From sequence record SRR20825010_2136: DNA of 64,000 nucleotides. One strand, 5' to 3'. Position 1 is the first letter of the stretch; each line of letters opens with the position of its first letter. The position numbers and the translations under genes are program-made. Shown here one piece after another: positions 1,331 through 50,599 of this stretch. The notes under the pieces are model-generated. The model saw only the letters and a program-made list of their open reading frames with translations, was not told where the DNA came from and did no database searches.

Positions 1331-2219
1331 TTTCTTCGGCTTGTGCTTAGCCACGCTCCCACTCCATATGGTCGCTCAAGAGCTTGACTTTACGGTGAGT
1401 GTGAATGCATCGAACGTGCAAACTACTGAAAGAGCCATTTTCTCTGAAATGGAAACAGCCATGCAGCGTTTCTTCAATGATAGAGTTTGGACAGACGATA
1501 ACTTTCAACCCAACGAAAAAATAAAGGGCAATCTGATCCTCAATATTCAAGACCAACCTTCAATCGGTCAGTTCAAAGCCAATGCACAAATCCAGATCAT
1601 TCGGCCAGTTTATGGCGCTTCTTATGAAACATTACTTTTGAACTTTGCCGACCGTGATTGGGAATTCCAATTCAGCCAAGGGCAATCCATGGATTTCAGT
1701 GAGAATAGATTTCTTAACAACATCACTTCACTTTTAGGTTTCTATGCTTACATCGCCATTGGTTTGGATTACGATTCCTTCAGTCCATTGGGTGGAACAC
1801 CTTATTTTAGATCTGCCTTAAATGTGGTCAATAGTGCCCAAAATAATGGTGGCGCTGGTTGGGGTCAATTTCAAAGTAGAAGAAATCGATATTGGTTAGT
1901 GGAGAACTTAGCCATCAATAGTCAATATGAACCTGTAAGAAAAGGCCTTTACGATTATCACATTAATGGTTTAGACAAATTCAAAGATGACCCAAAGGCT
2001 TGTAGAGAAACCATTAGCCAAGTTATTAAAGATATTCAAACTGTTAACGAGATACTTCCCAATGCCATATTGATTACTGCATTTTTGGATACGAAAAATG
2101 AGGAAATCACCAGCATCTTTTCAGAAGGCCAAACGAACATCAGAAAAGAGGTCTACAATGAGTTGTTGAAACTGGATCCCACACGCAGAAATAAATACCA
2201 GAAAATCGTTCAAAACTAG
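1302..2219 (+). CDS. porD: DUF4835 family secreted protein (type IX secretion component PorD-like)
   Basis: Signal peptide followed by AQEL; RPVYGASYET, FYAYIAIGLDYDSFSPLGG and NRYWL motifs; coaBC-DUF4835-recN synteny. ATG at 1302 preferred over TTG at 1284. Confidence 0.8.
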   Translation: MPSFKNWKLSFFGLCLATLPLHMVAQELDFTVSVNASNVQTTERAIFSEMETAMQRFFNDRVWTDDNFQPNEKIKGNLILNIQDQPSIGQFKANAQIQIIRPVYGASYETLLLNFADRDWEFQFSQGQSMDFSENRFLNNITSLLGFYAYIAIGLDYDSFSPLGGTPYFRSALNVVNSAQNNGGAGWGQFQSRRNRYWLVENLAINSQYEPVRKGLYDYHINGLDKFKDDPKACRETISQVIKDIQTVNEILPNAILITAFLDTKNEEITSIFSEGQTNIRKEVYNELLKLDPTRRNKYQKIVQN

Positions 2220-2244
2220 TATTGTCACAACACCATGTAATTGA

Positions 2245-2252
2245 TACATTTG
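2245..2252 (+). promoter_or_regulatory. Bacteroidota sigma-A -7 element (TAnnTTTG) for recN, probably leaderless
   Basis: TACATTTG ends 4 nt before the recN ATG at 2257. Confidence 0.55.
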
Positions 2253-2256
2253 TACT

Positions 2257-3906: not shown

Positions 3907-3931
3907 CCACCTTCCTTCCCCCTTAAAACCA

Positions 3932-3964
3932 AGAAAGTCGATTTGGAAACCAAACCGACTTTCT
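3932..3964. terminator. Hairpin between convergent recN and AGCS genes, probably a bidirectional terminator
   Basis: AGAAAGTCG-A-TTTGG-AAA-CCAAA-C-CGACTTTCT inverted repeat. Confidence 0.6.
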
Positions 3965-3984
3965 CGTAATTTCTATTCTATATC

Positions 3985-5406
3985 TTAATTCTTATCGAAC
4001 TCTCCCGCTTTATGACGAGCAAAGTAAGATTTTGTTGCCTTCATTACTTTTGGAGCTAGAATCAGTGCTGAAACCATGGTAGGAATCGCCATCAAAGCAA
4101 AACTTCCATCAATCAAATTCACTACAAAACCTAAAGAAGCCACGGCTCCAAGAATAATTGTACCGATGTATACATAATTATAGAGTTCTCCCTTTTTTGC
4201 TCCGAACAAGTAGGATACACTTTTCACTCCATAATAGGAATAAGAAAGTAAACTAGACACAGCAAATACTAAGATACAAAGCCCTAACAAATAGCCCCCA
4301 ACTCCTGGGATAGCAGCATTAAAAGCTTTTAGGGTTAATGTAACACCGAGCAAACCAGTGTCAGCCGCGCCAACAAACTCATGATGAACCCCAGTACCTA
4401 AAATCACCAATGCGGTAAGTGTACATACTAAAAGTGTATCAATGGCTGGACCAAGCATGGCCACAAGACCTTCGCGTACAGGTTCTTCTGTTTTTGTGTC
4501 TCCATGTACCATTGGGGCAGTTCCAATGCCTGCTTCATTAGAAAAGGCAGCTCGTTTGGCTCCTATAATAATCACGGCTCCAATACCACCTCCCAAAATG
4601 GCACTACCTGAAAATGCTTCTTCGAAAATTGAAGCGAAAATATCAGGAATACCCGTTACATTCTGAAGTAGAATGTAAACCACCAAACCGAAATACAACA
4701 CCACCATAGAAGGCACCAATTTGGCAGCTACACTACTAATTCTTTTAATACCCCCAAAGATCACCATAGACACTAAGGCCATTAAGATAAGTCCAGTAAC
4801 AAATGACGCTATTCCCACTGGAGCACCAAAGAGGTTAAATGTTGCTTCAGTATCATAGCCAACCGCTGGACCTAAAACGGCATTCATGGCCGCAGTAAGT
4901 TGATTTGCTTGGAAAATAGGCAAAGCTCCAATCAGCGTAAAAACGCAAAAGAATATGGCCATTGGCTTCCATTTTTTACCTAAACCTTCGGTAATTACAT
5001 ACATGGGACCGCCTCTTACTTCACCTTCACTGTCTTTTCCACGGTACATTACCGAAAGCGTACAGGTGAAAAATTTGGTCGCCATACCAACAAATGCAGA
5101 AACCCACATCCAAAAAATAGCCCCTGGGCCACCCATGGTAATGGCCACCGCCACACCACTGATATTACCCATCCCTACTGTGGCCGCTAAGGCTGTAGAA
5201 AGTGCTTCGTAGTGCGTTATTTGCCCTTCTTCATGATGAGTATCATACTTCCCTCTCAATACATTTATAGCGTGACCTATGTATTTGAAAGGCAAAAACC
5301 GTGAATAAAACAAGAATACTAGTCCTCCACCCATTACCAATATTAAGAGGGGAACTCCCCAAATCCAGCCACTAAAGCTGGATACAGCATCTTCTATAAA
5401 ACCCAA
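3985..5406 (-). CDS. Alanine/glycine:cation symporter (AGCS) family protein
   Basis: ATVGMGNISGVA, GGPGAIFWMW, GGPMY and FSNEAGIGTAP motifs; many TM helices. Confidence 0.95.
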   Translation of the reverse strand: MGFIEDAVSSFSGWIWGVPLLILVMGGGLVFLFYSRFLPFKYIGHAINVLRGKYDTHHEEGQITHYEALSTALAATVGMGNISGVAVAITMGGPGAIFWMWVSAFVGMATKFFTCTLSVMYRGKDSEGEVRGGPMYVITEGLGKKWKPMAIFFCVFTLIGALPIFQANQLTAAMNAVLGPAVGYDTEATFNLFGAPVGIASFVTGLILMALVSMVIFGGIKRISSVAAKLVPSMVVLYFGLVVYILLQNVTGIPDIFASIFEEAFSGSAILGGGIGAVIIIGAKRAAFSNEAGIGTAPMVHGDTKTEEPVREGLVAMLGPAIDTLLVCTLTALVILGTGVHHEFVGAADTGLLGVTLTLKAFNAAIPGVGGYLLGLCILVFAVSSLLSYSYYGVKSVSYLFGAKKGELYNYVYIGTIILGAVASLGFVVNLIDGSFALMAIPTMVSALILAPKVMKATKSYFARHKAGEFDKN

Positions 5407-16277: not shown

Positions 16278-18503
<2,226 letters not shown>

Positions 18504-18553
18504 TTATTGTTAACGAATACAATTTAAGAAAACCCTTTCGATAATTTTTATTT

Positions 18554-18585
18554 ATAGTTTTTATGAAGGTATAGATAAAAACTAT
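18554..18585. promoter_or_regulatory. Probable OxyR (LysR-type) operator upstream of katG
   Basis: Perfect 11-bp inverted repeat ATAGTTTTTAT-N10-ATAAAAACTAT, containing ATAG-N7-CTAT at 18571-18585. Confidence 0.6.
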
Positions 18586-18601
18586 ATCAAGACATGACTA
18601 G

Positions 18602-18645
18602 CTTTAGTTCCTTCACTCCGTTCAGGATGAAAAACAGTGTGCATA
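18602..18645 (-). repeat. REP-like element, right copy of an inverted pair with 15485-15530
   Basis: Minus strand reads TATGCACACTGTTTTTCATCCTGAACGGAGTGAAGGAACTAAAG. A more degenerate forward copy lies at 18703-18729. Confidence 0.7.
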
Positions 18646-18782
18646 AAATTGGCATATCTGATAAATGTAAAGTAAACGACTAAAGTATATTTACAGGTTT
18701 CTTTTCCTGAGAGAAACGAAGGATCTAAATAGGTGTGTAGACAATTGGTTTATGATGCTGAAGCAGTTGCCTACAAAAACAA

Positions 18783-18810
18783 AAAACCTCCAGATAAATC
18801 TGAAGGTTTT
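18783..18810 (-). terminator. Terminator of kynA
   Basis: AAAACCT-C-CAGAT-AA-ATCTG-A-AGGTTTT stem with an A-rich left flank. Confidence 0.6.
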
Positions 18811-18833
18811 GAATCTCGTTTTAAGAAAAGGAC

Positions 18834-19796
18834 TTAACCTATAACATTCTGATCTACCCAATGCTTACCCCATTCGTTTTGTTCCTCTTCAGACCATAGC
18901 TCTGGGAAGAAAATAACCTTCTGAAATCTTGGAGGAAGGTACTTTTGCCAATTGGTTCCGCCTGTAGCTTTAATGTCTTCTGGGCTGCGTTGCAAATAAC
19001 GCACCGCTGATTTATAATGCACCAAAGGCCAATCTACATTGACTAGTAAATCATAACGCTTCAATTCGGCAACAAGCTCTTCTATTCCTACCAAATCTTT
19101 ATAAAAGCGGGTATAAAGCTGATTTAAGTTGGTAGACTTCACCTCATTGGCGAGTTGGATAAACTCTTTGGAATACTTGGCGTCAAATTGATCGAGTGTC
19201 AAGGTTTTCTTCCCTGTTTTCAATTCTGTAGCTCCTGTCATCCAGTAAATAGAATCGTAGAGTTCTTCAATTGAAGCATAAGGATCGAAGTCATCTCTTT
19301 TTTTATAGTTCACCAAGTTGATCATGTCGGTAGAGGCAATTTCGATCATGCGGTATTGCGCAGACTGAAAGCCAGAAGCCGGTAAAAGCGACATTCTAAA
19401 CTGTAAAAACTGCTCCTTTTCCATGCCTTGAATCATGATGGAAAACGAATGGCAAAGGTGTTCGAAGTAGTTATTAATACGCTTTACTCGAGCCGTGAAA
19501 AACTCAAGGTTTGGATGTTCAGCAGATTGCATTTGTTTCATTTCCCACAGAATCAGTTTAAAATACAACTCTGTAGACTGATGGTAAACGATGAAAATCA
19601 TTTCATCAGGGAAATAGGTTTTGGGATGTTGAAGCGCCAAAAGCGACTCCAAATTAATGTATTCCCAATATTTGAGGTAGTCCGCATGAATTAGTCCATC
19701 GAGGTAGGAAGCCATATCTTGCCCCATTGCTTCGTACTTGGCCTCGAGCTTTTTAATTCTATCTAATATCCCTTGGTCGATTTCCTTGTTGTTCAT
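18834..19796 (-). CDS. kynA: Tryptophan 2,3-dioxygenase
   Basis: YWEYINLESLLALQ, DEMIFIVYHQSTELYFKL, PASGFQSAQYR, ATGGT and FFPELW motifs. Confidence 0.93.
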   Translation of the reverse strand: MNNKEIDQGILDRIKKLEAKYEAMGQDMASYLDGLIHADYLKYWEYINLESLLALQHPKTYFPDEMIFIVYHQSTELYFKLILWEMKQMQSAEHPNLEFFTARVKRINNYFEHLCHSFSIMIQGMEKEQFLQFRMSLLPASGFQSAQYRMIEIASTDMINLVNYKKRDDFDPYASIEELYDSIYWMTGATELKTGKKTLTLDQFDAKYSKEFIQLANEVKSTNLNQLYTRFYKDLVGIEELVAELKRYDLLVNVDWPLVHYKSAVRYLQRSPEDIKATGGTNWQKYLPPRFQKVIFFPELWSEEEQNEWGKHWVDQNVIG

Positions 19797-19859
19797 ACGT
19801 TTGTATTGTACTGAAATACGTGCAAATTTGAAGGATAATTTTTAGAAACCAAAGAACAT

Positions 19860-21074
19860 ATGAATACCGATAACCACGTTAATATTCAGAAATCGTCAAA
19901 ACAAGATACTTTTGAACACCCTGATTTCTACGGAATGGATTCCATGCTTACCGAAGAGCACATCATGGTGCGTGGCGCGGTGCGTGATTTCGTAAAGCAA
20001 GAAATTTCTCCTTATATAGAGAGTTGGGCGCAAAACGCGCACTTTCCACTAGAAATGGTGAAGAAATTTGGCGACATCGGAGCATTTGGCCCACAGCTGC
20101 CTACCGAATATGGTTGCGGTGGAATGGACTACATTTCTTACGGTTTGATTATGCAAGAAATTGAGCGTGGTGACTCAGGCATGCGTTCTACGGCTTCGGT
20201 ACAAGGTTCTTTGGTAATGTACCCTATCTACAAATTTGGCAACGAAGAACAACGCCACAAATACTTACCAAAATTAGCCTCTGGCGAATGGTTGGGCTGT
20301 TTTGGTTTGACAGAACCTGATCACGGTTCGAACCCTTCGGGCATGACCACCAACTTTAAAGACATGGGCGACCATTACCTTTTGAATGGCGCTAAAATGT
20401 GGATCTCAAATGCTCCACATGCCGATGTGGCCGTTGTTTGGGCGAAAAGCGAAGAAGGCCGAATTCACGGACTGATTGTAGAGCGTGGCATGGAAGGTTT
20501 CTCCTCTCCTACTACGCATGGCAAATGGTCGTTGAGAGCAAGTGCTACAGGCGAATTGGTGTTTGACAATGTGAAAGTGCCGAAAGAAAATTTACTTCCG
20601 AACAAAAGTGGTTTGGGTGCGCCAATGATGTGTCTGGACTCTGCCCGTTACGGCATTGCTTGGGGTGCTATTGGTGCCGCAATGGATTGTTACGAATCTG
20701 CTAGAAAATATTGCGCTGAGCGTATCCAGTTTGATAAGCCCATCGGGTCTTTCCAATTGCAGCAAAAGAAATTAGCAGAAATGCTGACAGAAATTACCAA
20801 GGCGCAGTTATTGAACTTCCGTTTAGGTCAGCTTTTTAACGAAGGGAAAGCCACTACGCCACAAATTTCTATGGCCAAACGTAATGCGGTAGAGGTTGCC
20901 TTGAACATTGCCCGCGAAGCAAGACAAATGCATGGTGGAATGGGTATTACAGGCGAATACCCAATGATGCGACATATGGCCAACCTAGAATCTGTAGTAA
21001 CCTATGAAGGAACACACGATATTCACCTGCTCATTTTAGGTGCTGAGATTACTGGAATTCCTGCTTTTAAGTAG
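19860..21074 (+). CDS. gcdH: Glutaryl-CoA dehydrogenase (acyl-CoA dehydrogenase family)
   Basis: ERGDSGMRSTASVQGSLVMYPIY, GCFGLTEPDHGSNP, ARYGIAWG and TYEGTHDIH motifs. Confidence 0.9.
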   Translation: MNTDNHVNIQKSSKQDTFEHPDFYGMDSMLTEEHIMVRGAVRDFVKQEISPYIESWAQNAHFPLEMVKKFGDIGAFGPQLPTEYGCGGMDYISYGLIMQEIERGDSGMRSTASVQGSLVMYPIYKFGNEEQRHKYLPKLASGEWLGCFGLTEPDHGSNPSGMTTNFKDMGDHYLLNGAKMWISNAPHADVAVVWAKSEEGRIHGLIVERGMEGFSSPTTHGKWSLRASATGELVFDNVKVPKENLLPNKSGLGAPMMCLDSARYGIAWGAIGAAMDCYESARKYCAERIQFDKPIGSFQLQQKKLAEMLTEITKAQLLNFRLGQLFNEGKATTPQISMAKRNAVEVALNIAREARQMHGGMGITGEYPMMRHMANLESVVTYEGTHDIHLLILGAEITGIPAFK

Positions 21075-21112
21075 TGGACGTATAGCAATGATATATCATC
21101 GCTATACGTCAC
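21071..21112 (+). repeat. GTAG-headed REP-like hairpin at the gcdH stop codon
   Basis: GTAGTG-GACGTATAGC-A-ATGAT-AT-ATCAT-C-GCTATACGTC-AC; the right arm stops before regenerating CTAC. Confidence 0.6.
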
Positions 21113-21132
21113 ATTTGTGACTGACACATAAC

Positions 21133-21696
21133 GTTGTAGCTAATGTCGTTTAGAAAATGGATTGGTTAATTGAAAATTACGAGTGGTTACTATCTGGGGC
21201 AGGAATCTTTATTCTTGGATTCATAATTGATTTCTTTCGAAAAAAAAGGAGTTCCAAAGATTTGAATGATTCGACAGGAAACTCTCCTTCAAATAAAATA
21301 AAAGCCAAGAAAGTTAGTTTGAACCAAATCTTCGTGAATAACTCGAATACTGGAGACATTAAAACAAAATCATATAAGCAAAACAAGTCTCTTAAGGACC
21401 CTGATCTCAAAAAAATAAAGGACACATATTTTGGAGCAAAAAATAAATTCCGCACCTATTTAATTAAAAAATTGGCTGATGAAAGAAATAAAAATCTTTA
21501 TCTCCAAATTCATCACATAACTGATGCTGCTGAAGATGAAAAAGGAATTGAACAAACAGTTACATTCTCAGAGATCATAAAATTGAAGGAAGAAGGACTA
21601 ATAAGCTTTGAATTGGAAAACAATGAAATTCCAAGCCCATATACTTACATAGTCTTGACTGAAAAATATTTTGAACTACTTTAACCACTTCTTACA
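21133..21696 (+). mobile_element. Putative solitary integron-type gene cassette
   Basis: Begins at GTTGTAGC (R'-like core) 24 nt before an ATG and ends at TTACA (truncated R''-like TTACAAC) 8 nt after the stop. It holds a single, visibly AT-rich ORF. Confidence 0.5.
21157..21684 (+). CDS. Hypothetical membrane-anchored protein (cassette cargo)
   Basis: N-terminal TM helix (WLLSGAGIFILGFII), basic linker and a possible C-terminal winged-helix segment (IIKLKEEGLISF); AT-rich coding sequence. Confidence 0.7.
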   Translation: MDWLIENYEWLLSGAGIFILGFIIDFFRKKRSSKDLNDSTGNSPSNKIKAKKVSLNQIFVNNSNTGDIKTKSYKQNKSLKDPDLKKIKDTYFGAKNKFRTYLIKKLADERNKNLYLQIHHITDAAEDEKGIEQTVTFSEIIKLKEEGLISFELENNEIPSPYTYIVLTEKYFELL

Positions 21697-21718
21697 ATCG
21701 AGTAGACGGTTCCGCCCC
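21697..21718 (-). mobile_element. 3'-terminal remnant (domain VI 3' strand) of a class C group II intron
   Basis: Minus strand GGGGCGGAACCGTCTACTCGAT, with the class C-like CTACTCGAT end and a branch-position A 7 nt from the end. No domain V or RT gene upstream. Confidence 0.6.
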
Positions 21719-21833
21719 TAATAAGCACGTAACTTAGTTTCTTGTGTTTCTAAAAAAACCTTTATAAAGTGACTGTTCTGAGCTGTAGTTAATAAAAGCA
21801 GTCCTCTTCAACAATTCTGTTCTCCACTCCCTT

Positions 21834-21888
21834 GTCGCAGGTTCTCCGAACCTGAGACCATCTATTCATCAAGGACGCTGTCCGCTTT
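21834..21888 (+). repeat. REP-like family GTCGCAGGTTC..GAACCTGCGAC, copy A
   Basis: GTCGCAGGTTC-TCC-GAACCTGAGAC, plus a CTGTCCGCTTT tail shared with copy C. Confidence 0.7.
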
Positions 21889-21960
21889 CTTTTCATTGAC
21901 AAAACCTCCTGAGTATCAGCGTAAGCAAGGCGGCTGATGATTTGTTTGTCCAAAAAAAAG

Positions 21961-22196
21961 GTATTACGCCCTTACAGGGCTAAAATTATTTTTACTGAAT
22001 TAGGAATGGGTTGCACCCATTCCTATGTTATTTCGCCCCGTTGGGGCTTTGAGTGCGCAATCAGCCCATCAATATTTCTTACAACGCGTATTTCACTCCC
22101 CCTGCCCTGAAAGGGCCTAATATCAAAACGAAGGGTGAAACCCTTCGGTAAAACTATACCACAAACACTATTTGAGTCCTGAAGGGACGGGATAAC
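21961..22196. repeat. Two back-to-back three-hairpin units of the GCCCTGAAAGGGC repeat family
   Basis: Unit 1 (21961-22048): GCCCTTACAGGGC, TAGGAATGGGTTGCACCCATTCCTA, GCCCCGTTGGGGC. Unit 2 (22104-22196): GCCCTGAAAGGGC, CGAAGGGTGAAACCCTTCG, GTCCTGAAGGGAC. Confidence 0.75.
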
Positions 22197-22230
22197 GGTC
22201 ACTTGCGGTTAGTCAGGTATCAATTCCTCT

Positions 22231-22255
22231 GTCGCGGGTTCTCCGAAACTGTGAC
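22231..22255 (+). repeat. REP-like family GTCGCAGGTTC, copy B
   Basis: GTCGCGGGTTC-TCC-GAAACTGTGAC. Confidence 0.65.
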
Positions 22256-22405
22256 CACCTACTCATTCGAGTTTCTGTTTTTCATCAATAATAGTATGAA
22301 AAGAATGAGAGAGTCTGCTAATTTATAGCGTGTTCTATCGTTAAGACAATCATTTCTTAACTGATCAGGCACTATTTTACTTTTGTTTAAATTTCATGCA
22401 GACCA

Positions 22406-22975
22406 ATGCACCAAGCTTTAAGAACTAAACTGGAGAAAACCTTAAAAATATCAGATGAGGATTGGAAAACTTTTGAGTCCATTCTACAAACCCTAGAATT
22501 CAAAAAAAAGGAATACATTTTAAAAGCAGGTCAAATTTGTAATGGCATATATTTTCTGAGAGAAGGCACTGTACGAGCTTTCTATTTAAAAGATGGGCAA
22601 GAGATCAACACATCTTTCAATTTTGAAAATGATTTTTTGCGAGAAATAGAAAGCTTAGCCAATAATCAACCTTCAGAGAAATATATTCAGGCAATTGGAA
22701 ACAGTAAGTTGTTTTATATAGAAAAAAACAAGCTTATTGATCTTTATCAGAACTCCATTTTCTTTCAAGAATTAGGTAGAAAGATTTTGGAACAATTAGC
22801 GATTACCGAACAGAAATACGCTACGCTTTTAGCTGCCAATTCGCCAAAAGAAAGATACCTCCATATTCTAGAGCACAAGCCTGAACTGATTCATCGCGTT
22901 TCATTACAACACCTTGCCTCCTATTTGGGAATCAGCAGAGAGTCTTTGAGCAGAATCCGGAAGCGGGTTTCATAA
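22406..22975 (+). CDS. Crp/Fnr family transcriptional regulator (Bacteroidota type)
   Basis: cNMP-binding-like domain (ILKAGQIC..IYFLREG) and C-terminal HTH (LASYLGISRESLSRIR). Confidence 0.92.
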   Translation: MHQALRTKLEKTLKISDEDWKTFESILQTLEFKKKEYILKAGQICNGIYFLREGTVRAFYLKDGQEINTSFNFENDFLREIESLANNQPSEKYIQAIGNSKLFYIEKNKLIDLYQNSIFFQELGRKILEQLAITEQKYATLLAANSPKERYLHILEHKPELIHRVSLQHLASYLGISRESLSRIRKRVS

Positions 22976-22982
22976 AGCATTT

Positions 22983-22998
22983 TGTGACTTAAGTCAAA
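22983..22998. promoter_or_regulatory. Crp/Fnr-type operator upstream of the NTF2-like gene
   Basis: TGTGA-CTTAAG-TCAAA with a perfect core palindrome TGACTTAAGTCA, just after the regulator's stop codon. Confidence 0.6.
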
Positions 22999-23044
22999 GG
23001 AGCAAAAAAACCTGTGCTATTAATTTGTTTCAAAAAACAATCAT

Positions 23045-23491
23045 ATGAAACAAATCTTAATACTTGCATGCCTAGGTACAATTATAAGCCTTCCGACTTG
23101 CATAGCTCAAAACAAAACGCTTATGGAAAATGAAATCAAAAAAGTAGTGTTGAATTTAGAAAGTGCCACTGCTAAAAGGAATATTATAGAAATAGAAAAA
23201 TACCTTCACAAAGACTATCGAGTTGTCGCCAACAGGTTTAAAGGATCAAGCACAACAACCATTATTACAAGAGAAATGTATCTAGGAATGATGCAAGCCG
23301 GTAAAATTGGCGGCACCTCATACACCACTGAATTTAAAAGTATCAGTATCACCGATCATACCGCTTTGGTAGATCTTGTTTTCACATCAGACATTAGCTC
23401 CGATATGCACAAATACCTGATATTGATTTTAGATGAAAACGACCAATGGAAAGTTGTCAGTGACATTCCTGTCGTGATCGAAAAAAACTAA
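23045..23491 (+). CDS. Secreted NTF2-like (DUF4440/SnoaL-like) protein
   Basis: Signal peptide; IEKYLHKDY..., ITREMYL and QWKVVS pattern of the NTF2 fold. Confidence 0.7.
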   Translation: MKQILILACLGTIISLPTCIAQNKTLMENEIKKVVLNLESATAKRNIIEIEKYLHKDYRVVANRFKGSSTTTIITREMYLGMMQAGKIGGTSYTTEFKSISITDHTALVDLVFTSDISSDMHKYLILILDENDQWKVVSDIPVVIEKN

Positions 23492-23520
23492 TGTAGTGGG
23501 GATATAAGAGCCTTATCTCT

Positions 23521-23598
23521 GTCGCAGGTTCTTCGATTTATTAGCAATAGGTAGAATCTGCGACCACTTATGAATGACAGGGCTCTGTCCGCTTTACC
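23521..23598 (+). repeat. REP-like family GTCGCAGGTTC, copy C (19-nt loop insertion)
   Basis: GTCGCAGGTTCTTCGA-[TTTATTAGCAATAGGTAGA]-ATCTGCGACC...CTGTCCGCTTT. Confidence 0.65.
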
Positions 23599-23607
23599 AG
23601 CTGGCTT

Positions 23608-23718
23608 AAATAGTTAAAACCATTCCCAAAAGGCATTCATACATATAGCCCAGGGTTTAAACCGTGGGCTATATAAGCTATATAATTTATAATCTACATT
23701 AACCGTTTCAACGGTTTT
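23608..23718 (+). repeat. Three-hairpin repeat (AATGGTTAAAACCATT / AGCCCACGGTTTAAACCGTGGGCT / AACCGTTTCAACGGTT), copy 1
   Basis: Same three palindromes in the same order as at 24878-24979. Confidence 0.8.
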
Positions 23719-24535
23719 CGAGTTCATTTTTCATAAACCGATTGAATTCCTCCAGCTTATCTGTATTAATAAAGTCTATTCCCAAATCCATCAAGGTTTT
23801 CCAAGCATTAGGCATATCGGGAATGGCCCAGAGACGAACTTTCTTGTCTTCCGCATGAGCCTTACTGATCAGATCAGTGATTCTGTTTTTGTCATCGTTT
23901 GGCATTTCACCTTTGCCATTCCACTTTGAAAACTGATTGAAATTCTGACTAATCACTGGCATTTTCTCAGCAGATATTCCCTTTCCCACATCAGAAGGCC
24001 GTCCATCTAATGTCGCCAAATTGATATCTTCTGAAAGCATTGTTGCGATGGGCCTATTGCCAGAAATAAAAACAAGCACGGGTTTATCTACCTGCCTTTT
24101 TCCCTTTTCAACCACAGACAAAATGGATTCATATTTTTGAAGCAGTTGTTTTATTGCCTTATAAGTGCTCTCTCCTTCTGTTTTAAAGTCAATCATTAAG
24201 AAAAAGAATTCATCATAATTTGGGTATACGCTACCTCCATTACTTTGTACTCTTTCCAATAAAGGCTTTAAATACAGCTTTTCTAAAGTTCGGTCTTCAC
24301 TTGGTTGCTCAGGTTGATTGTGATAAACAAACAATTCGTTACCAATCAAATAAACATCTGCTTCTACAGAAACAAACCCATTGCTTAAGGCATCAAACAA
24401 AGGTTTTTCATGCTCATAATCATTATGGGCATGTGCGTTTATGAGCGGCTTTGACTGGCCATGTCCGCTGATTAAGCCAAGACTGGTTAAAAGTAAAACT
24501 GTAAGAACCGTGGTACGCATTGTAGAAATAAACAT
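23708..24535 (-). CDS. Secreted PI-PLC/GDPD-like phosphodiesterase (AIM6-like)
   Basis: NAHAHNDYEH, SVEADV, LMIDFK, VRLWA and GIDFINTD motifs; signal peptide. Confidence 0.8.
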   Translation of the reverse strand: MFISTMRTTVLTVLLLTSLGLISGHGQSKPLINAHAHNDYEHEKPLFDALSNGFVSVEADVYLIGNELFVYHNQPEQPSEDRTLEKLYLKPLLERVQSNGGSVYPNYDEFFFLMIDFKTEGESTYKAIKQLLQKYESILSVVEKGKRQVDKPVLVFISGNRPIATMLSEDINLATLDGRPSDVGKGISAEKMPVISQNFNQFSKWNGKGEMPNDDKNRITDLISKAHAEDKKVRLWAIPDMPNAWKTLMDLGIDFINTDKLEEFNRFMKNELENR

Positions 24536-24648
24536 TTGAGGATTAATGGAACAAGTTTAGCAAAACTAAAAGACTTATCTGTGGGATATTGATCGCTAAA
24601 CTGTTAGTGAATTCTAAACATAGACCTCATAATAACAAAACAACAACT

Positions 24649-24694
24649 CTCGCAGGCTCTCCGAGTTATCTGCCATAGGCAGGACATGTGAGAC
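24649..24694 (+). repeat. REP-like family GTCGCAGGTTC, copy D (19-nt loop insertion)
   Basis: CTCGCAGGCTCTCCGA-[GTTATCTGCCATAGGCAGG]-ACATGTGAGAC. Confidence 0.55.
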
Positions 24695-24747
24695 TTATGA
24701 AAGAAGGATTCTGACTGTTCTAGGCGGTGGTTAATAAAAATAACTCC

Positions 24748-24780
24748 ATTGGTCAGACCACTCGGAGTGGTCTGACCAAT
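24748..24780. repeat. 33-bp perfect palindrome (TTGGTC..GACCAA family)
   Basis: ATTGGTCAGACCACTC-G-GAGTGGTCTGACCAAT; related shorter hairpins at 24811-24832 and 25599-25615. Confidence 0.75.
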
Positions 24781-24877
24781 TTTAAACAGTAGCAGGCTCT
24801 TCGCTCCCACTGGTCGTTGCTCGCTGCGACCATACCTAGAAACTTTGCTTTAACAAAATGAAGACTTCAACCTACCA

Positions 24878-24979
24878 AAATGGTTAAAACCATTACTCAA
24901 ATACACCCATATTCATAGCCCACGGTTTAAACCTTGGGCTATGAAATCCACAATCAACGTCAATCGTTTCAACGGTTTT
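24878..24979 (+). repeat. Three-hairpin repeat, copy 2
   Basis: AAATGGTTAAAACCATT ... ATAGCCCACGGTTTAAACCTTGGGCTAT ... AATCGTTTCAACGGTTTT. Confidence 0.8.
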
Positions 24980-25086
24980 TCCATATTCACTGAAATGGAT
25001 CAAATCCGTTAACCCTACAAAACAAAAAATGTATCTTGCTCCATTGGATAGAAACAGAACATTGTGCTTAATAATAAGATACTCGA

Positions 25087-25551
25087 ATGATACTTAAAGA
25101 ACTAAAACAAAGACAGGATATTAAGGGAGACATCAAACTTGAAGGAGCCTATATTCAGTTGGATAAACTCCTGAAAGAATTGAGCGGTAGAAAGCTGACA
25201 AATGAAGTAGTAAGTGCTATCAATAAAGATATTGAGGAAATAAACTCAACCTCAGCCTCAGGGAAAATTTTGAGGAATGTGATTAAAAAGAAACAATCAA
25301 AAATTATCCAGTTAGTAGCCAAAGAGGTCAAGCTTGTGACTAAGAATCACAACCGGAATACTTGGATGGCCATTGGAATGTCAGTCTTTGGTATTCCTCT
25401 TGGCGCTGCCTTTGGTACGAGCCTTGGAAATATGGCTTTTATAGGAATCGGATTACCAATTGGCATGGCCATAGGAATTGCGATGGGTACAAGTCTTGAT
25501 AAAAAAGCTTTTGAAGAAGGAAGACAGCTTGACATTGAATTAAAGCACTAA
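25087..25551 (+). CDS. Hypothetical membrane protein with C-terminal glycine-zipper helices
   Basis: GMSVFGIPLGAAFG...GIGLPIGMAIGIAMG followed by DKKAFEEGRQL. Confidence 0.8.
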   Translation: MILKELKQRQDIKGDIKLEGAYIQLDKLLKELSGRKLTNEVVSAINKDIEEINSTSASGKILRNVIKKKQSKIIQLVAKEVKLVTKNHNRNTWMAIGMSVFGIPLGAAFGTSLGNMAFIGIGLPIGMAIGIAMGTSLDKKAFEEGRQLDIELKH

Positions 25552-25701
25552 ACTTTGTGGGCTTATTTGCTCCATAAATGTCCTCAATAATATTCCTATT
25601 GGTCGCAGCGACCAACTAATCCTCAAATTCACCTCTGCGCTTCTCAGCGTTCTTTGCGGTTAAACTAAACCCGTTACTTCCCTCATTAAGAATTATCCGA
25701 A

Positions 25702-25746
25702 TGTGATTTTTGTCACGTTCTAGCCAACAAACTCATCGTAAATTTG
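25702..25746 (+). promoter_or_regulatory. Crp/Fnr-type box plus -7 promoter for the thioredoxin-OsmC-permease operon
   Basis: TGTGA-TTTTTG-TCACG at 25702-25717 and TAAATTTG at 25739-25746. Confidence 0.6.
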
Positions 25747-25767
25747 TGATAATTAAACGTACGTAAA

Positions 25768-26004
25768 ATGAGCAAAGTAATTAAAATATTAGGAACAGCT
25801 TGTCCAAAATGCCAATCAATGACAGCCGTGATCAAAGATGTGATTTCAGAAAACAACATTGATGCTACCATTGAAAAAGTGGAAGACATAATGGAAATCA
25901 TGAAGTTCAACGTGATGACAACACCTGCTTTGGTCATTGACGATGTCATCACAGTGAAAGGCAGAGTACCTACCAAAAAGGAAGTACTGGAACTGTTAAA
26001 TTAA
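25768..26004 (+). CDS. Small redox-active disulfide protein (MTH895-type thioredoxin family)
   Basis: IKILGTACPKC, IEKVED and VMTTPALVID motifs. Confidence 0.9.
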   Translation: MSKVIKILGTACPKCQSMTAVIKDVISENNIDATIEKVEDIMEIMKFNVMTTPALVIDDVITVKGRVPTKKEVLELLN

Positions 26005-26010
26005 AGGGTC

Positions 26011-26418
26011 ATGGACTATCATATCAAAGCTTCTTCTATATCGAACAACGATGCAGAGATTCACATTAAAGAATCGAATATAGATTTTGGTACTACTGCA
26101 AAAACAGCTGAAACGCTACCCAATCCTGCTGAATTGTTCCTAGGGTCATTTTCAGCCTGTATGCTTAAAAATGTAGAGCGTTTTTCGGCCATGATGAACT
26201 TTACTTATACAAAAGCCACAGTAGAAGTAAACGCAACTCGCCTTGAGAAGCCGCCTAGAATGGACAACATTGATTATAAATTAACCATTTATAGCAACGA
26301 TGATAAACTGAACACAGACTTGTTAAAAAGGAACATTGAAAAATTTGGCACTATCTATAATACGGTGAAACAATTCTGCACTATTTCTGGCACCATAAAT
26401 ACGGTTAAAGATGTTTGA
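26011..26418 (+). CDS. OsmC/Ohr family protein
   Basis: PNPAELFLGSFSAC motif. Confidence 0.85.
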   Translation: MDYHIKASSISNNDAEIHIKESNIDFGTTAKTAETLPNPAELFLGSFSACMLKNVERFSAMMNFTYTKATVEVNATRLEKPPRMDNIDYKLTIYSNDDKLNTDLLKRNIEKFGTIYNTVKQFCTISGTINTVKDV

Positions 26419-27385
26419 TTGGTTGCAGGGTTTTGCAAACTGGCTGATCTATTCAGTGTTTGAGGTTGGAGCAGAAACCCATTTGGGAACTACTCTGAAT
26501 TTCTTTGTGTATGACACGCTCAAAATCCTAATTCTACTTTTTTTCATTGTCTTCTTAATGGGAATTGTAAATGCATACTTCCCTATTGAACGACTCAAGG
26601 ACTACTTAAACAGAAGAAAGCTCTACGGCTTAGAATACTTTTTCTCTTCTGTTTTTGGTGCAATTACTCCTTTTTGCTCTTGCTCTTCCGTTCCGTTATT
26701 TATTGGCTTTGTACAAGGTGGGATTCCGTTAGGCGTAACCTTCTCTTTTTTGATTACTTCACCCCTAGTAAATGAAGTAGCTGTGGCCATGTTTCTAGGT
26801 ATGTTTGGTGTAAAAGCTACCTTGATTTATGCTATTTCAGGTATCATACTAGGCACTGTTGGTGGTTGGTTGCTGGGTAAATTCAATCTAGAACCTTTGC
26901 TTTCGGATTGGGTAAAAAAGATTCTCGATAACAAAATGCAGCAAGCTGAATTTGAAGAAGAGAAACGAACTTTCTACCAACGCTTGCCTGAAATTTCGCG
27001 TGGCGCTTGGGATATTGTAAAAGGTGTACTGCTTTATGTAATTATAGGAATTGCCATCGGGGCTGCCATGCACGGTTATGTTCCAGCAAATTTTTTCAAT
27101 CAGTATTTAGGCGGTGGAGAATGGTGGACTGTTCCCTTGGCCGTAATGCTTGCCGTGCCCATGTATGCCAATGCAGCAGGAATTGTTCCTGTTATTCAGG
27201 TATTTGTGGTCAAAGGAGTACCGCTTGGAACAGCCATTGCCTTTATGATGGCCACTGTTGGTTTGTCCATCCCAGAAGCTACTCTGCTTAAAAAGGTTAT
27301 GTCTTTAAAACTGATTACGATCTTCTTTGGAATCGTTACGCTCTGCATCATCATTTCAGGGTATTTATTCAATGTCATACTGTAA
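26411..27385 (+). CDS. DUF318/ArsP-family permease
   Basis: ITPFCSCSSVPLF, GIPLGVTFSFLITSPLVNE, AVPMY, KGVPLGTAIAFMM and LSIPE motifs. Confidence 0.9.
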   Translation: MFDWLQGFANWLIYSVFEVGAETHLGTTLNFFVYDTLKILILLFFIVFLMGIVNAYFPIERLKDYLNRRKLYGLEYFFSSVFGAITPFCSCSSVPLFIGFVQGGIPLGVTFSFLITSPLVNEVAVAMFLGMFGVKATLIYAISGIILGTVGGWLLGKFNLEPLLSDWVKKILDNKMQQAEFEEEKRTFYQRLPEISRGAWDIVKGVLLYVIIGIAIGAAMHGYVPANFFNQYLGGGEWWTVPLAVMLAVPMYANAAGIVPVIQVFVVKGVPLGTAIAFMMATVGLSIPEATLLKKVMSLKLITIFFGIVTLCIIISGYLFNVIL

Positions 27386-27419
27386 AGCCTAAATACCAAC
27401 ATACCGTATAAAGTCAAAG

Positions 27420-28109
27420 CTAAATTTCAAAATGCATGCCTTCTTTCAGTAGCTTGTTGTAGGTGGTTTTATTGAATTGAAATAAGTTTCCGGGCCTGCC
27501 CGCTCCAGTTGATTTTGTCTTTTCTTCTAGCTCATCTAGAATCCCTAGACTCATCACCTTCTTTTTGAAATTTCTCCTGTCAATTGGTCGGTCCAATACA
27601 GTAGAATAAAGGTGTTCCAAATCGGAGAATGCGAACTTCTTGTCCAACAATTGGAAGCCGATGGGCTGGTATACAATTTTGCCTCTAAGTCTTTCAATAG
27701 CTATTTTGAGTATTTCCTGATGATCGAAAGCTAGTTTAGGCAGCTTTTTAAAGTTGAACCATGCGGCATCCGCTGCGTCTGTAGATGCCTTCAGTTTTTC
27801 GAATTGCTTTGATTTCACTAAACCAAAATAAGCTACAGATAAGATGCGTTTTCGAGGATCTCGGTCTGGCTTCCCGAAGGTGTATAACTGTTCGAGGTAA
27901 TTGATTTCAACCCCCGTTTCTTCCTGGAGCTCTCGGGCCACAGCGGCTTCTAATGATTCATCATCCAACACGAAGCCACCAGGTATTGCCCATGATCCCT
28001 TGAAAGGATCATACTTTCTTTTAATCAACAAAATAGACACCCCCTCCTCTTTGCTGTAACCAAATACAATTGCGTCCACCGCCACTTCAATATTTTGTGT
28101 TCTATTCAC
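27420..28109 (-). CDS. nrtR: NrtR family regulator (Nudix domain + winged HTH)
   Basis: WAIPGGFV..ESLEAAVARELQEETG Nudix box, EQLYTFG.PDRDPR, LAFDH, DRRNFKKK and GRPG. GTG start at 28109 preferred. Confidence 0.9.
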   Translation of the reverse strand: MNRTQNIEVAVDAIVFGYSKEEGVSILLIKRKYDPFKGSWAIPGGFVLDDESLEAAVARELQEETGVEINYLEQLYTFGKPDRDPRKRILSVAYFGLVKSKQFEKLKASTDAADAAWFNFKKLPKLAFDHQEILKIAIERLRGKIVYQPIGFQLLDKKFAFSDLEHLYSTVLDRPIDRRNFKKKVMSLGILDELEEKTKSTGAGRPGNLFQFNKTTYNKLLKEGMHFEI

Positions 28110-28112
28110 GCA
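28096..28112 (-). promoter_or_regulatory. Putative NrtR operator 1, overlapping the nrtR start codon
   Basis: Minus strand TGCGT-GAATAGA-ACACA, the same TGCGT-N7-ACACA form as the two intergenic sites. Confidence 0.6.
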
Positions 28113-28211
28113 ATAAAGGTAGCACAATATATATCAATACAACAAATCGACTTGCAACATGATGTCACAAAAAGACAGCCTATTGCTGTTAATCAATGAT
28201 TAAGAATTATT

Positions 28212-28228
28212 TGCGTAAAATAAACACA
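28212..28228 (+). promoter_or_regulatory. Putative NrtR operator 2
   Basis: TGCGT-AAAATAA-ACACA. Confidence 0.65.
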
Positions 28229-28258
28229 TATTATTTGTCTAACCATAAATATTTTACT

Positions 28259-28281
28259 TAATTTTGCGTACATTAAACACA
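28259..28281 (+). promoter_or_regulatory. Putative NrtR operator 3, overlapping a -7 promoter element
   Basis: TAATTTTG (28259-28266) overlaps TGCGT-ACATTAA-ACACA (28265-28281). Confidence 0.65.
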
Positions 28282-28319
28282 ATTAGTTTGTAATCAAGCG
28301 CATCAAATTCAATTCGCTC

Positions 28320-28601
28320 ATGCTCGAAGCTTCTCAAGTAACACCACCTATTTTCATGAGTTCGGATGGTCTAACAACGGCATTAATGCCTTTGATTTTT
28401 AGAACAGACATTAAAACCAAGAAGAAGCGCAAGGCCGTAGCGTTAATGCTGGATAATGATGCCTCTATAGTAAGTTGGTCTGTTGACCTTCAGGATATAG
28501 ATAATGTATTGAGAATAGAGCCGACTTGGGGGCTATCTGAACCTGATGTGATTGCCAAAGTCAGAGCTATTGGTTTTTACTGTGAACCTTTAGACACATG
28601 A
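28320..28601 (+). CDS. Small hypothetical protein, possibly HMA/ferredoxin-like fold (start may be ATG 28386)
   Basis: LIFRTDI...WSVDLQDIDNVLRIE...GFYCEPL; its stop overlaps the next ATG (ATGA). Confidence 0.7.
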   Translation: MLEASQVTPPIFMSSDGLTTALMPLIFRTDIKTKKKRKAVALMLDNDASIVSWSVDLQDIDNVLRIEPTWGLSEPDVIAKVRAIGFYCEPLDT

Positions 28602-29572
28602 AAGCAATAGTTTGGAAAAAGTATGGTTCACCTGATTATCTTGAATTAGCTGAAATTGAAAAGCCTATCCCAAAGGATGATGAAGTGCTGATTAAGGTTC
28701 ATGCGGCAACGGTAACACCGGGTGATTGTGAAATCCGAAGGTTTGAAATGCATGTTTTATTCTGGCTCCCACTCCGGATTTACTTTGGTATCTTCAAACC
28801 CAAGCGACCCGTTTTAGGGATGGAGTTATCAGGGAAAATAGAAGCCATTGGTAAAAGTGTAAAGAATTTCAACATTGGAGATCAAATAGTCTGTGGGACA
28901 GGTCTTAAATTTGGTGCATATGCAGAATATAAGTGCTTGAAAAGCACTGCGATGATCGCCCTGAAGCCAGCAAACATGACGTATGAAGAGGCAGCTTCCC
29001 TTCCCACTGGAGCCATCAATGCACTTCATTACCTCAGAAAAGGAAATATCCAGCCTGGTGAAAAACTGCTGATTATTGGGGCAGCAGGTTGTTTTGGTAC
29101 CTATGCCATTCAGCTCGCTAAATATTTTGGTGCAGAAGTAACTTGTGTGGATAGTACAGACAAACTTCAGCCATTGCTTTCCTTAGGTGCTGATCACCTC
29201 ATTGACTATACCAAAGAAAGTTTTGTGGAAAGGGCTGAGAAGTATGATGTCATCTTTGATGTGGTGGGTAAATCCGTATTTCAAGGAATGAAATCACTTA
29301 CACCTAACGGTAGGTACATTTTGGCTACGCCTTGGGTTTTTCCAGTACTACAAGGACTGTGGGTTTCTATGACGAGCAGAAAGAAATTCATTTTGGAACT
29401 CGCTAAAGAAGATCCAAAAAACTTAATCTATTTAAAAGAACTTATTGAAGATGGCAAGCTAAAGACGGTTATCGATAAGCATTTTCCTTTAGCAGAAATG
29501 GCGGCTGCCCATCATTATGTTGAAAAGGGTGATAAGGTAGGGCAAGTTGCGATCAATGTAACTAACCAATAA
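28598..29572 (+). CDS. NAD(P)-dependent MDR-family oxidoreductase (quinone-reductase type)
   Basis: YGSPD, DEVLIKVHA, GAYAEY, GAAGCFGT nucleotide-binding motif and AAAHHYVEKG; no catalytic-Zn GHE motif. Confidence 0.9.
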   Translation: MKAIVWKKYGSPDYLELAEIEKPIPKDDEVLIKVHAATVTPGDCEIRRFEMHVLFWLPLRIYFGIFKPKRPVLGMELSGKIEAIGKSVKNFNIGDQIVCGTGLKFGAYAEYKCLKSTAMIALKPANMTYEEAASLPTGAINALHYLRKGNIQPGEKLLIIGAAGCFGTYAIQLAKYFGAEVTCVDSTDKLQPLLSLGADHLIDYTKESFVERAEKYDVIFDVVGKSVFQGMKSLTPNGRYILATPWVFPVLQGLWVSMTSRKKFILELAKEDPKNLIYLKELIEDGKLKTVIDKHFPLAEMAAAHHYVEKGDKVGQVAINVTNQ

Positions 29573-30553
29573 ATGAAAGCCATAGTACTCAAGCGATATG
29601 GAGGAATAGAAAACCTCGTTTTGGAAGAAGTTGAAAGACCAGCACCAAAGGATAATGAAGTTTTGATCAAAATGATATCCGCTTCCATCAATGATTGGGA
29701 CCGGGCACTAATGACTGGAAAGCCATTTATTATCCGAATGCTCTATCGTGCTTTTTTCAAACCTAAAATTAAAATTTTAGGCGTTGATGTCGCTGGAAAA
29801 GTAGTCGCTATAGGGAAAGCAGTCATCGCTTTTAATCTTGGTGATGAGGTTTATGGAGACCTTTCAGAATGTGGCTTTGGAGGTTTTGCAGAATATGTTT
29901 GCGCAGATGCCAAAGCACTTGTCATCAAGCCTTCCAACATGAGTTTCGATCAAGCGGCTGCAATTCCCCATGCTGCTGCGCTTACAATACAAGGTCTAAT
30001 CGATGAAGGCCAACTTCAAGAAGGTCAGCATTTACTCATCAATGGTGCTGGAGGCGGTGTAGGTACATTTGGAATCCAAATAGCGAAACTGTATCAAGCG
30101 AAAGTAACGGGTGTAGATAGCTTTGAAAAACAAGAAATGATGGCATCCTCGGGCTATGATGAGGTGATCGATTATAAAGTTCAAGACTTCACCAAAAATG
30201 GAAAGCAATATGACCTGATCCTCGATGCAAAGACCAATCGTTCACCCTTTGAATACCTTAAATCTCTAAAACCCGGAGGAATATATGTAACCATTGGCGG
30301 CCAAATGTCTCGACTAATGCAAATCGTATTCCTTGCCCCTATGATAAAGCGCATTACTGGAAAGCAATTAAAAGTCCTTACTCTAAAGCCAAACAAAGGG
30401 TTAGACTACATCAATGAGTTATACATGTCAGGTAAAATTAAATCTGTCATTGATGGACCATATCCTTTCGAAGAAATACCAAAAGCGGTTGATTATTTCA
30501 TCCAAGGCAAGCACAAAGGAAAAGTGATTATTTCGATTAGTAATGAAGATTAA
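29573..30553 (+). CDS. NAD(P)-dependent MDR-family oxidoreductase (quinone-reductase type), paralogue
   Basis: GGFAEY, NGAGGGVGTF, VIDY and GKHKGKVII motifs. Confidence 0.9.
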   Translation: MKAIVLKRYGGIENLVLEEVERPAPKDNEVLIKMISASINDWDRALMTGKPFIIRMLYRAFFKPKIKILGVDVAGKVVAIGKAVIAFNLGDEVYGDLSECGFGGFAEYVCADAKALVIKPSNMSFDQAAAIPHAAALTIQGLIDEGQLQEGQHLLINGAGGGVGTFGIQIAKLYQAKVTGVDSFEKQEMMASSGYDEVIDYKVQDFTKNGKQYDLILDAKTNRSPFEYLKSLKPGGIYVTIGGQMSRLMQIVFLAPMIKRITGKQLKVLTLKPNKGLDYINELYMSGKIKSVIDGPYPFEEIPKAVDYFIQGKHKGKVIISISNED

Positions 30554-30716
30554 GTTGACCTTTTGTAGGCCCTGTAAATAGATCGACTGGTAGTTTAGAA
30601 TTATTTAATTTTTACATCCATAACATAATCCCAAAAGTCTTTTTACCTTCTCCATATCCTAAGCATCGGATCGCGTCAAACTCCTAATGTCGTTACTTAG
30701 CGTTGATAAATTCAAT

Positions 30717-50559: not shown

Positions 50560-50599
50560 TTAGAGTGCTTATCAAGAAAGACAGGGAGAGTTTTACAGG

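Follow-up and report, generated by a model that had tools for sequence, protein, structure and literature searches.

The subject of this report is a short block of DNA directly behind a gcdH-type acyl-CoA dehydrogenase gene in a 64,000-nucleotide (nt) stretch of sequence record SRR20825010_2136 (hereafter the window; all coordinates are positions in it). The block, 21076–21721, is probably a decayed single-cassette remnant of an integron-like system of the Cytophagales, with the last nucleotides of a group II intron at its right-hand end. The features on which the argument turns are these.

19860–21074, plus strand: gcdH-type acyl-CoA dehydrogenase, a core gene (Pfam Acyl-CoA_dh_N/M/1)
21075–30592, no strand: variable region of 9.5 kb relative to the nearest Roseivirga genome (blastn against L001; gene families)
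21076–21111, no strand: loop-less palindrome, the left part of an attI-like module (arms 21077–21093 and 21094–21110)
21087–21137, plus strand: attI-like module, with the inverted repeat GTCAC-ATTT-GTGAC (21108–21121) followed by ACATAAC and GTTG
21133–21140, plus strand: core GTTGTAGC, a presumed R-box with crossover G|TT and cassette start
21157–21684, plus strand: putative cassette open reading frame (ORF) of 175 amino acids (aa) with an N-terminal membrane helix and no Pfam family
21689–21696, plus strand: TTCTTACA, presumed left part of the R'' core of the cassette, cut by the intron after ...ACA
21697–21721, minus strand: class-C-type group II intron scar (domain VI, 3' strand only, including the branch-site region and running to the terminal ...CTACTCGAT)

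An earlier reading of the letters and ORFs (the sequence-only reading) described an orphan cassette fused to the 3' end of a group II intron and inserted at a hairpin, and every one of its coordinates was exact when the window was re-read. The gcdH stop codon, TAG, occupies 21072–21074. In the nearest genome, a Roseivirga (G001, also L001), gcdH is 99% identical at the amino acid and ~88% identical at the nucleotide level, and the protein identity to three further Roseivirga genomes is 92–93%. The blastn match between the window and G001 ends at the gcdH stop (21074) and restarts at 30593, in an MscS-type gene; in place of the 9.5 kb region G001 carries 1.2 kb with different content, namely a deaminase-like gene and one small membrane ORF. 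The 175-aa ORF is missing after gcdH in all four Roseivirga genomes, in agreement with the proposal that it is foreign at gcdH and not vertically conserved there, and the GC content of 21133–21696 is 30.9%, as against 40.0% for the window, the lowest among the 564-nt stretches sampled.

The intron end and its lineage

The pentamer TTACA (21692–21696) directly abuts ATCGAGTAGACGGTTCCGCC (21697–21716). Read on the minus strand, 21697–21718/21721 is the genuine 3' end of a class-C-type group II intron, and the scar is 22–25 nt long. The exact 20-mer occurs in 11 metagenome stretches, in nine of which it closes a complete domain VI directly before the 3' exon. It carries an A variant, CGGAA where other copies have CGGAG, and the copies with this variant pair with CATTCCG in place of CACTCCG, a compensatory change that confirms the domain VI helix. 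Alignments to RF00029 (domains V and VI) at two loci, L085 and L082, end exactly in ...CUACUCGAU (38.8 and 33.9 bits; gathering score 40), and the terminal ...CTACTCGAT that the sequence-only reading gave for such introns is found in 18 of 20 distinct related copies. Together with a full-length copy, L099, and the metagenome copies of domain VI, the RF00029 alignments uphold the proposal that the 20-mer is the 3' end of class-C-type introns that encode a reverse transcriptase (RT). In the 201 genomes of the host's family the 17-mer with one mismatch was found at seven places in three genomes, always as GGAGCCGTCTACTCGAT, and the control at two places. The four Roseivirga genomes held one place with two mismatches against six for the control, which is background, and RF00029 had no match in any of the four.

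Could the 20-mer resemble an intron end by chance? The remaining two of the 11 exact metagenome matches do lie in unrelated GC-rich sequence and are themselves chance matches. We nevertheless regard such a coincidence as scarcely credible: 24 of 25 bases of the scar match locus L083 and 22 match the metagenome introns, the window contains the 19-mer a single time when up to three mismatches are allowed, and 100 shuffles of it contain none at the same tolerance; and the strand, the 3' exon starting with T and the distance of 12 nt from the preceding stop codon are all as expected for the lineage.

Just the terminal 22–25 nt of the intron are present, close to the 'last ~20 nt' of the sequence-only reading. 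Rfam searches found no other intron part (domain V, D1–D4) at E≤1 over 18000–26000 and no intron family at gathering score over the entire window, and a sensitive blastn search of all intron loci against the window matched only at 21692–21721 (best matches 29 nt at 93% and 25 nt at 96%). The break falls in or next to the terminal loop of domain VI.

The full-length copy L099 (genome G161) is ~1.86 kb long and scores 88 bits with RF02001, 42.1 with RF01998 and 40.1 with RF00029; its ORF, which is frameshifted, encodes RT and maturase. The RT of another copy, L108, has RVT_1 and GIIM, with ~58 aa after GIIM and no further domain. Small size and an RT/maturase ORF without an endonuclease domain, both features of class C, are found in the lineage and are absent from the window; domains V and VI with a conserved 3' end are likewise found in the lineage, and of these the window has the 3' strand of domain VI only. 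With an L099-type intron as query, 107 of the 201 family genomes gave matches at E≤0.001, many of them partial (the tally takes in G115, flagged as unpublished), and the lineage is common in the host's family. The nearest RTs found by tblastn in the plasmid collection are from Bacteroidota (65–76% identity), those of Firmicutes being ~42–44% identical.

Domain V of the lineage reads C-CGC-CGUAU and that of another lineage of the same genomes G-AGC-CGUAU; we take the CGC triad to be a hallmark of class C group II (IIC) introns. The second lineage, with the AGC triad in domain V (L089, L090, L091 and L092; genomes G161, G166 and G132), has a 3' end reading ...CTACTCGAC. A separate element of 297 nt without an ORF (L086, G132:C113, 1221–1517) has the 5' end GTGTGCC... 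and the 3' end ...CTACTCGAT of the first lineage, lacks a canonical domain V and shares its interior with L088; it may be a non-autonomous mini-intron. Short 3' remnants of the lineage occur elsewhere, of ~115 nt (L194) and ~170 nt (L195), both inside contigs; these are the two informative cases among four places examined, the other two being contig ends.

The target habit of the lineage is consistent. With the intron's 5' end placed at GTGTGCC..., 17 of 18 distinct 5' exons end in TGT, several of them directly behind hairpins, and all 20 distinct 3' exons begin with T, so that insertion after a DNA hairpin, a feature of class C, is found here too. Published IIC-attC introns, in the sections of the papers that treat their targets, enter the bottom strand of the R'' core at TTGT/T, against the direction in which the cassette is transcribed (PMC7923331, PMC3001079); in the corresponding sections they are also described as able to part a gene from its attC and as occurring 5'-truncated in integrase-less arrays (PMC7923331, PMC3001079, PMC4424553).

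At L108, L113 and L141 the intron stands no more than a few kb from a homologue of one tyrosine recombinase, and such a recombinase also lies near the intron on the Chondrinema litorale plasmid NZ_CP111070.1 (L192). The annotated order on the plasmid is site-specific integrase (−), GNAT gene (−), ltrA intron (+) and further genes (−); the segment 4984–8577 is complete, with integrase, an attI-like inverted repeat and G|TTAGCTGC, a GNAT cassette, a full-length antisense class-C-type intron and same-strand genes. Recombinase, first cassette and full-length intron are seen together in three loci (L108, L113 and the plasmid), and in all three the 3' exon of the intron repeats the bases that follow G|T at the site behind the recombinase: TGTGGTGC and TGTGGTGT in L108 (repeated bases TGTGGTG), TGGCATTC and TGGCATTT in L113 (TGGCATT), and TAGCTGC versus TACCTGC on the plasmid. 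Such repetition is to be expected if the intron inserted into the first cassette's R'' core, and in each of the three the intron occupies R'' on the bottom strand, opposite to the cassette. The window agrees with them in strand and in the ...ACA| position; its scar lies antisense to the ORF at ...TTACA|, as the sequence-only reading had it, which is where the lineage sits in R'' cores next to integron-like recombinases. The attC of the window is no longer recognisable.

The attI-like module and the arrays of Roseivirga relatives

The palindrome behind gcdH has arms of 17 nt that are 94% complementary, with one mismatch and no loop, and it occurs once in the window. The sequence-only reading took it for a GTAG-headed hairpin with a right arm cut short, on which the element had inserted. 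Both arms are in fact complete, and GTAG is the gcdH stop codon plus one G. A GTAG hairpin of the REP/RayT type (REP, repetitive extragenic palindromic) would not be expected to look like this, the palindrome being single in the window and only its right arm recurring in G001, within the module described next. Hairpins of the form TATAGC...GCTATA, like that of the window, precede the equivalent site in a second Roseivirga genome, G003, and one site in G001, at the same position.

The stretch 21087–21137 matches two places in G001 at 83–85% and a third more weakly (78%, E 0.35). The three places are the site behind a recombinase gene, the end of the array which that gene heads, and a position before hsdM beside a RayT-like gene. 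Five aligned sites, from the window, G001 and G003, share CAC-N4-GTG...ACATA.CGTTG, and their similarity ends right after GTTG; two of the five come immediately after the recombinase genes in G001 and G003. A separate contig of 634 nt in the public run X2 (record 13) matches 21101–21138 with two differences. Since the hairpin lies in an imported attI-like module, of which the like is found behind the recombinases of G001 and G003, it is not the gcdH terminator serving as a target, and the idea of a pre-existing hairpin insertion site falls with it. A Bacteroidetes-type promoter within the left module was considered and rejected by eye, the spacing being wrong. Of the copies in G001, one (L177, G001:C2:519500-523500, 1134–1186) lies between the RayT-like transposase gene and a type I restriction-modification operon, and another (L176, 4161–4200) where the cassette array ends, ahead of a TPR/AraC-type gene.

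Behind the recombinase gene of G001 (352 aa) come ...GCCACAAACGTGACTGATACATAAC|GTTGTGGTG and a series of small ORFs on the same strand, none with a Pfam family. The first bases of three consecutive units are GTTGTGGTG, GTTGTAGCA and GTTGTAGCC, and past its ORF each unit closes with the perfect complement, CACCACAAC, TGCTACAAC and GGCTACAAC respectively (9 nt, three of three cassettes); imperfect inverted repeats lie between each cassette end and the next start. The core GTTGTAGC of the window had been proposed as a cassette start, and cores identical to it open cassettes 2 and 3 of this array, with GCTACAAC as their match where the cassettes end. In G003 an orthologue of the recombinase (69% identity) precedes a site of this kind and a first unit, GTTGGCCGC...GCGGCCAAC. 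Viewed as wholes, the arrays of G001 (L176, G001:C4:262000-270000, 128–4200) and G003 (L190, reverse strand) hold 3–4 small cassettes in the same direction as the recombinase; the cassette starts, GTTGTRG..., are perfectly complementary over 9–10 nt to the cores behind the ORFs, and the attC-like repeats measure ~55–190 nt.

The ORF of the window has a homologue in such a unit. In a further genome, G261 (L143), the homologue is flanked by GTTAGCGGC and GCCGCTAAC, a start and an end that are perfectly complementary over 9 nt, and is a cassette gene; the next unit is a zeta-toxin-like ATPase between GTTGTGGGC and GCCCACAAC. The G253 homologue, next to a RhuM-like gene, is a pseudogene. Perfect start/end complements are accordingly seen for three cassettes in G001, one in G003 and two in G261. 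Because 9-mer pairs at any spacing are not rare (shuffles give ~2 per 8 kb), the weight of these pairs rests on their tiling and on their placement around ORFs. The ORF family is rare, being present in three of 401 genomes of the order. An exhaustive profile search gave 42 proteins at E≤0.001, 15 of them at E≤1e-10; the full-length relatives share 31–51% identity, and the N-terminus has a partial match to the candidate defence family PDC-M43A (E 5e-9); judged by these similarities, the ORF is not an orphan. A word-based protein search of public collections yielded one 116-aa fragment, the scan of metagenome contigs no relatives, and tblastn of the plasmids no match.

An attI site, complementary R'/R'' cores and attC hairpins are all found in G001, G003 and G261, and the window has the attI-like site and the R' core, with a truncated R'' and nothing of the rest of attC. 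The G001 recombinase passes NF040815 ('tyrosine recombinase/integron integrase'; 224 versus 220 bits) and fails TIGR02249 (209.6 versus 265). A canonical intI with its additional domain is found neither there, the score being below that cut-off, nor in the window, which holds no homologue. Integrons as such have been reported in Bacteroidota, in the part of PMC8618304 that concerns them.

The right-hand flank and neighbouring genes

Two further features belong to the flank to the right of the scar.

21738–21884, no strand: REP-like short repeats (46-nt unit at 21738–21783; ~50–70-nt unit at 21816–21884)
21962–22200, no strand: mosaic of ~190–240 nt of short GC-rich hairpins, a repeated intergenic element

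REP-like repeats, with as many as 32 matches in G001, make up the mosaic DNA right of the scar. The larger mosaic, 21962–22200, has at least five copies in G001 at 70–80% identity, four of them ~1.5 kb apart on contig C10. It was considered, with the C10 copies, as the missing attC and rejected, as no tiling R'/R'' pairs are present. A second TTCTTACA occurs at 22076–22083, followed by AC, the two bases that the R'' model predicts; its reading as one half of a displaced R'', or as a duplicated target, was likewise rejected, since it aligns with unrelated letters in the G001 copies, and it may well be a chance occurrence, as it sits in the variable middle of the mosaic.

Other repeats occur in the neighbourhood. 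A ~54-nt unit has two copies (21816–21869 and 22213–22266, 78% identical), is repeated in G001 too and gives, when read on the minus strand, the similar short peptides MNRWSQVRRT... and MSRWSQFRRT.... A ~70-nt hairpin repeat has direct copies at 23607–23676 and 24877–24948, flanking a GDPD gene; one copy overlaps a weak Rfam HrrF-like match (E 0.007), and two copies resembling it sit just upstream of the G001 recombinase gene. The OsmC-like gene at 26068–26370 has a 71% DNA match in the region of contig C10 with the 190-nt mosaics, where these hairpin mosaics stand ~1.5 kb apart between same-strand ORFs. The remaining genes of the 9.5 kb are ordinary (Crp-like, DUF4440, GDPD, OsmC, permease, NrtR-type Nudix and two zinc dehydrogenases). 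An S-adenosylmethionine (SAM) riboswitch, RF00162, at 50598–50703 on the minus strand (68.6 bits) is the sole Rfam match over gathering score in the window.

Pieces identical to the window are present in the public runs X2 and X3, which may derive from the source organism. In run X1 two contigs link 21073/21074 to 21833/21827; these junctions at the gcdH stop are a mere hint of an allele without the block, because the shorter side measures just 22–28 nt and a high-copy repeat lies beyond. A related strain in X1 is represented by one 458-nt contig that covers 21340–21722, with the ORF and the scar, and then departs from the window.

Origin of the element and comparison with known systems

The description of the locus as one cassette with an attC-intron scar, outside any integron and with no integrase within 64 kb, is supported by the identity of the scar, by the core and by the want of a recombinase homologue in the window. 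The history that we favour would run as follows. The left part, 21076–21136, would be an attI-like site of the kind found directly behind the recombinase in related Roseivirga, and a cassette with one low-GC accessory gene, starting at the crossover G|TTGTAGC (21133/21134), would have arrived there by integrase-mediated attI × attC recombination. The former R'' core of its attC, ...TTACA|AC, would lie 12 nt past the ORF stop. Later a Bacteroidota IIC intron may have entered the bottom strand of R'' at the ...TGT|T... that it usually targets, in antisense to the gene; everything else of the intron and of attC would then have been lost through 5'-truncated (abortive) reverse transcription or through later deletion, with REP-like repeats now following. 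The unit would now be immobile, and its gene, supposing it is expressed, would depend on read-through from gcdH or on its own promoter. The anatomy parallels that of the full-length examples: attI-like site, G|TT, one gene, ...ACA| and antisense intron.

Several observations weigh against this reading. The bottom strand of TTCTTACA, TGTAAG..., agrees with the cassette start TGTAGC... at four of six bases; the predicted R'/R'' complement across TTACA|AC thus holds for the first four, TGTA, and fails thereafter, whereas the arrays and the three intron examples show 6–9 bases. No remainder of attC (L''/L'/R') is recognisable right of the scar, where the DNA matches REP-like repeats only. The 64-kb window contains no homologue of the recombinase (best tblastn E 7.1), as the sequence-only reading had supposed of integrases. 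Downstream of the two orphan G001 modules no matching cassette end is recognisable, so the module may serve another role than attI. Finally, the G001 recombinase, aligned to IntI4 (2A3V), lacks residues ~215–245, the IntI-specific insertion, and falls under the integron-integrase cut-off; we therefore call the system integron-like and use the word integron loosely.

These observations lend substance to an account in which the scar is real and there never was a cassette. An accessory gene would have been acquired in some other way, a class-C intron would have inserted behind its terminator hairpin and later decayed, and the upstream motif would be a regulatory or REP-like repeat. Terminator hairpins are the commonest target of IIC introns, and some copies of the present lineage lie directly after plain hairpins (an L099 copy, L103 and L119). 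The four-base R'/R'' match, the modules before hsdM and at the array end in G001, and the RayT-like gene beside the former point the same way. We nonetheless hold this account to be unlikely. The five modules cease to resemble one another exactly past GTTG, and two of the five precede cassettes whose ends complement the bases beyond it; the homologue of the 175-aa ORF resides in a cassette with a perfect 9-nt start/end complement; and the scar replicates, in position and strand, the three recombinase-linked examples.

The sequence-only reading had gone further and proposed RT-mediated, integrase-independent copying of the cassette to a new site. In this scheme a bottom-strand transcript, consisting of intron, antisense cassette and attI region, would be reverse-transcribed until ~22 nt into the intron, and the ~650-nt complementary DNA inserted after gcdH without an integrase. 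The scheme has the merit of explaining both ends at once, the attI-like module without a recombinase gene and the abrupt break inside domain VI; orphan attI-like modules do recur (two in G001, and X2 record 13), and 5'-truncated copies are common in the intron lineage. No result, however, shows such copying, and we judge it improbable. The metagenome contigs and plasmids yielded no second, source copy of the cassette, the target-site features of retro-insertion were not found, and deletion gives the same anatomy. The flanking motifs were expected to bracket other orphan genes, but they do not co-occur in the four Roseivirga genomes searched, from which the intron 17-mer is absent, and the relevant sections of PMC4424553 and PMC7923331 offer no precedent. 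The left junction, moreover, lies at the canonical G|TT crossover of an attI-like site, which indicates ordinary integrase recombination. Integrase insertion followed by intron invasion and truncation or deletion explains the locus more simply than RT copying does.

The origin of cassettes, and the part that group IIC-attC introns play in making and moving them, is an open question that this locus does not settle; it is a relic of known mobile-DNA processes and not proof of a new route of gene movement. If retro-copying were true, it would be the equivalent in bacteria of what long interspersed nuclear elements (LINEs) show as 3' transduction and 5' truncation, and would account for the orphan attI-like modules scattered in Roseivirga genomes. 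The relatives of the locus do offer a tractable natural system in marine Cytophagales, in which integron-like arrays with an Xer/IntI-like recombinase that lacks the IntI insertion, a Bacteroidota class-C intron lineage found repeatedly in the R'' core of the first cassette, and orphan attI-like modules with very short intron scars occur together. This Bacteroidota system looks little described: a search of the literature on group II introns with attC in Bacteroidetes found no related report, the key target-site papers lying outside that search. For annotation, an intron scar of 22 nt can betray the place of a former attC that would escape finders based on structure.

Among known systems the closest are the group IIC-attC introns such as S.ma.I2, which, in the parts of PMC3001079 and PMC7923331 that describe them, combine a class-C-type ribozyme with bottom-strand R'' insertion at (T)TGT|T, antisense orientation and a gene parted from its attC. 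The present case differs in its Bacteroidota host and in that the window keeps only 22–25 nt, and the likeness is one of structure and target. The fragments UHB.F1 and H.ha.F1/F2, likewise 5'-truncated with only 3' parts retained, lie in cassette arrays, two of them in an integrase-less array, and are attributed to incomplete reverse transcription in the section of PMC7923331 devoted to them. These fragments keep parts of the RT gene; the window scar is far shorter, without domain V, with half of domain VI and with attC gone.

As an isolated chromosomal cassette beside a core gene, with no integrase nearby, the locus also resembles SALIN and CALIN elements (single attC sites, and clustered attC sites, without integron integrases) and insertion at attG, as these are presented in bioRxiv 10.1101/2022.09.11.507474. 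A SALIN is defined, in that preprint, by a detectable attC, and none is intact in the window; the attC would be undetectable here because it is interrupted by the intron and its distal part is missing. Unlike an attG insertion, the left junction is an attI-like module and not a dif-like attG site. In the model of Leon and Roy, as cited in passages of PMC3001079 and PMC7923331, introns join genes to attC and reverse transcription helps to make cassettes; new cassettes there arise by recombination between two intron copies, whereas in the retro-copying scheme an existing cassette is copied elsewhere. The locus demonstrates neither. The arrays of the Roseivirga relatives, lastly, depart from canonical integrons in that the recombinase is oriented like the cassettes, is without the IntI-specific insertion and reaches 209.6 versus 265 bits with TIGR02249; they share with canonical integrons a recombinase, a site ending in GTT, tiled cassettes whose starts complement R'', and attC-like imperfect repeats of ~55–190 nt.

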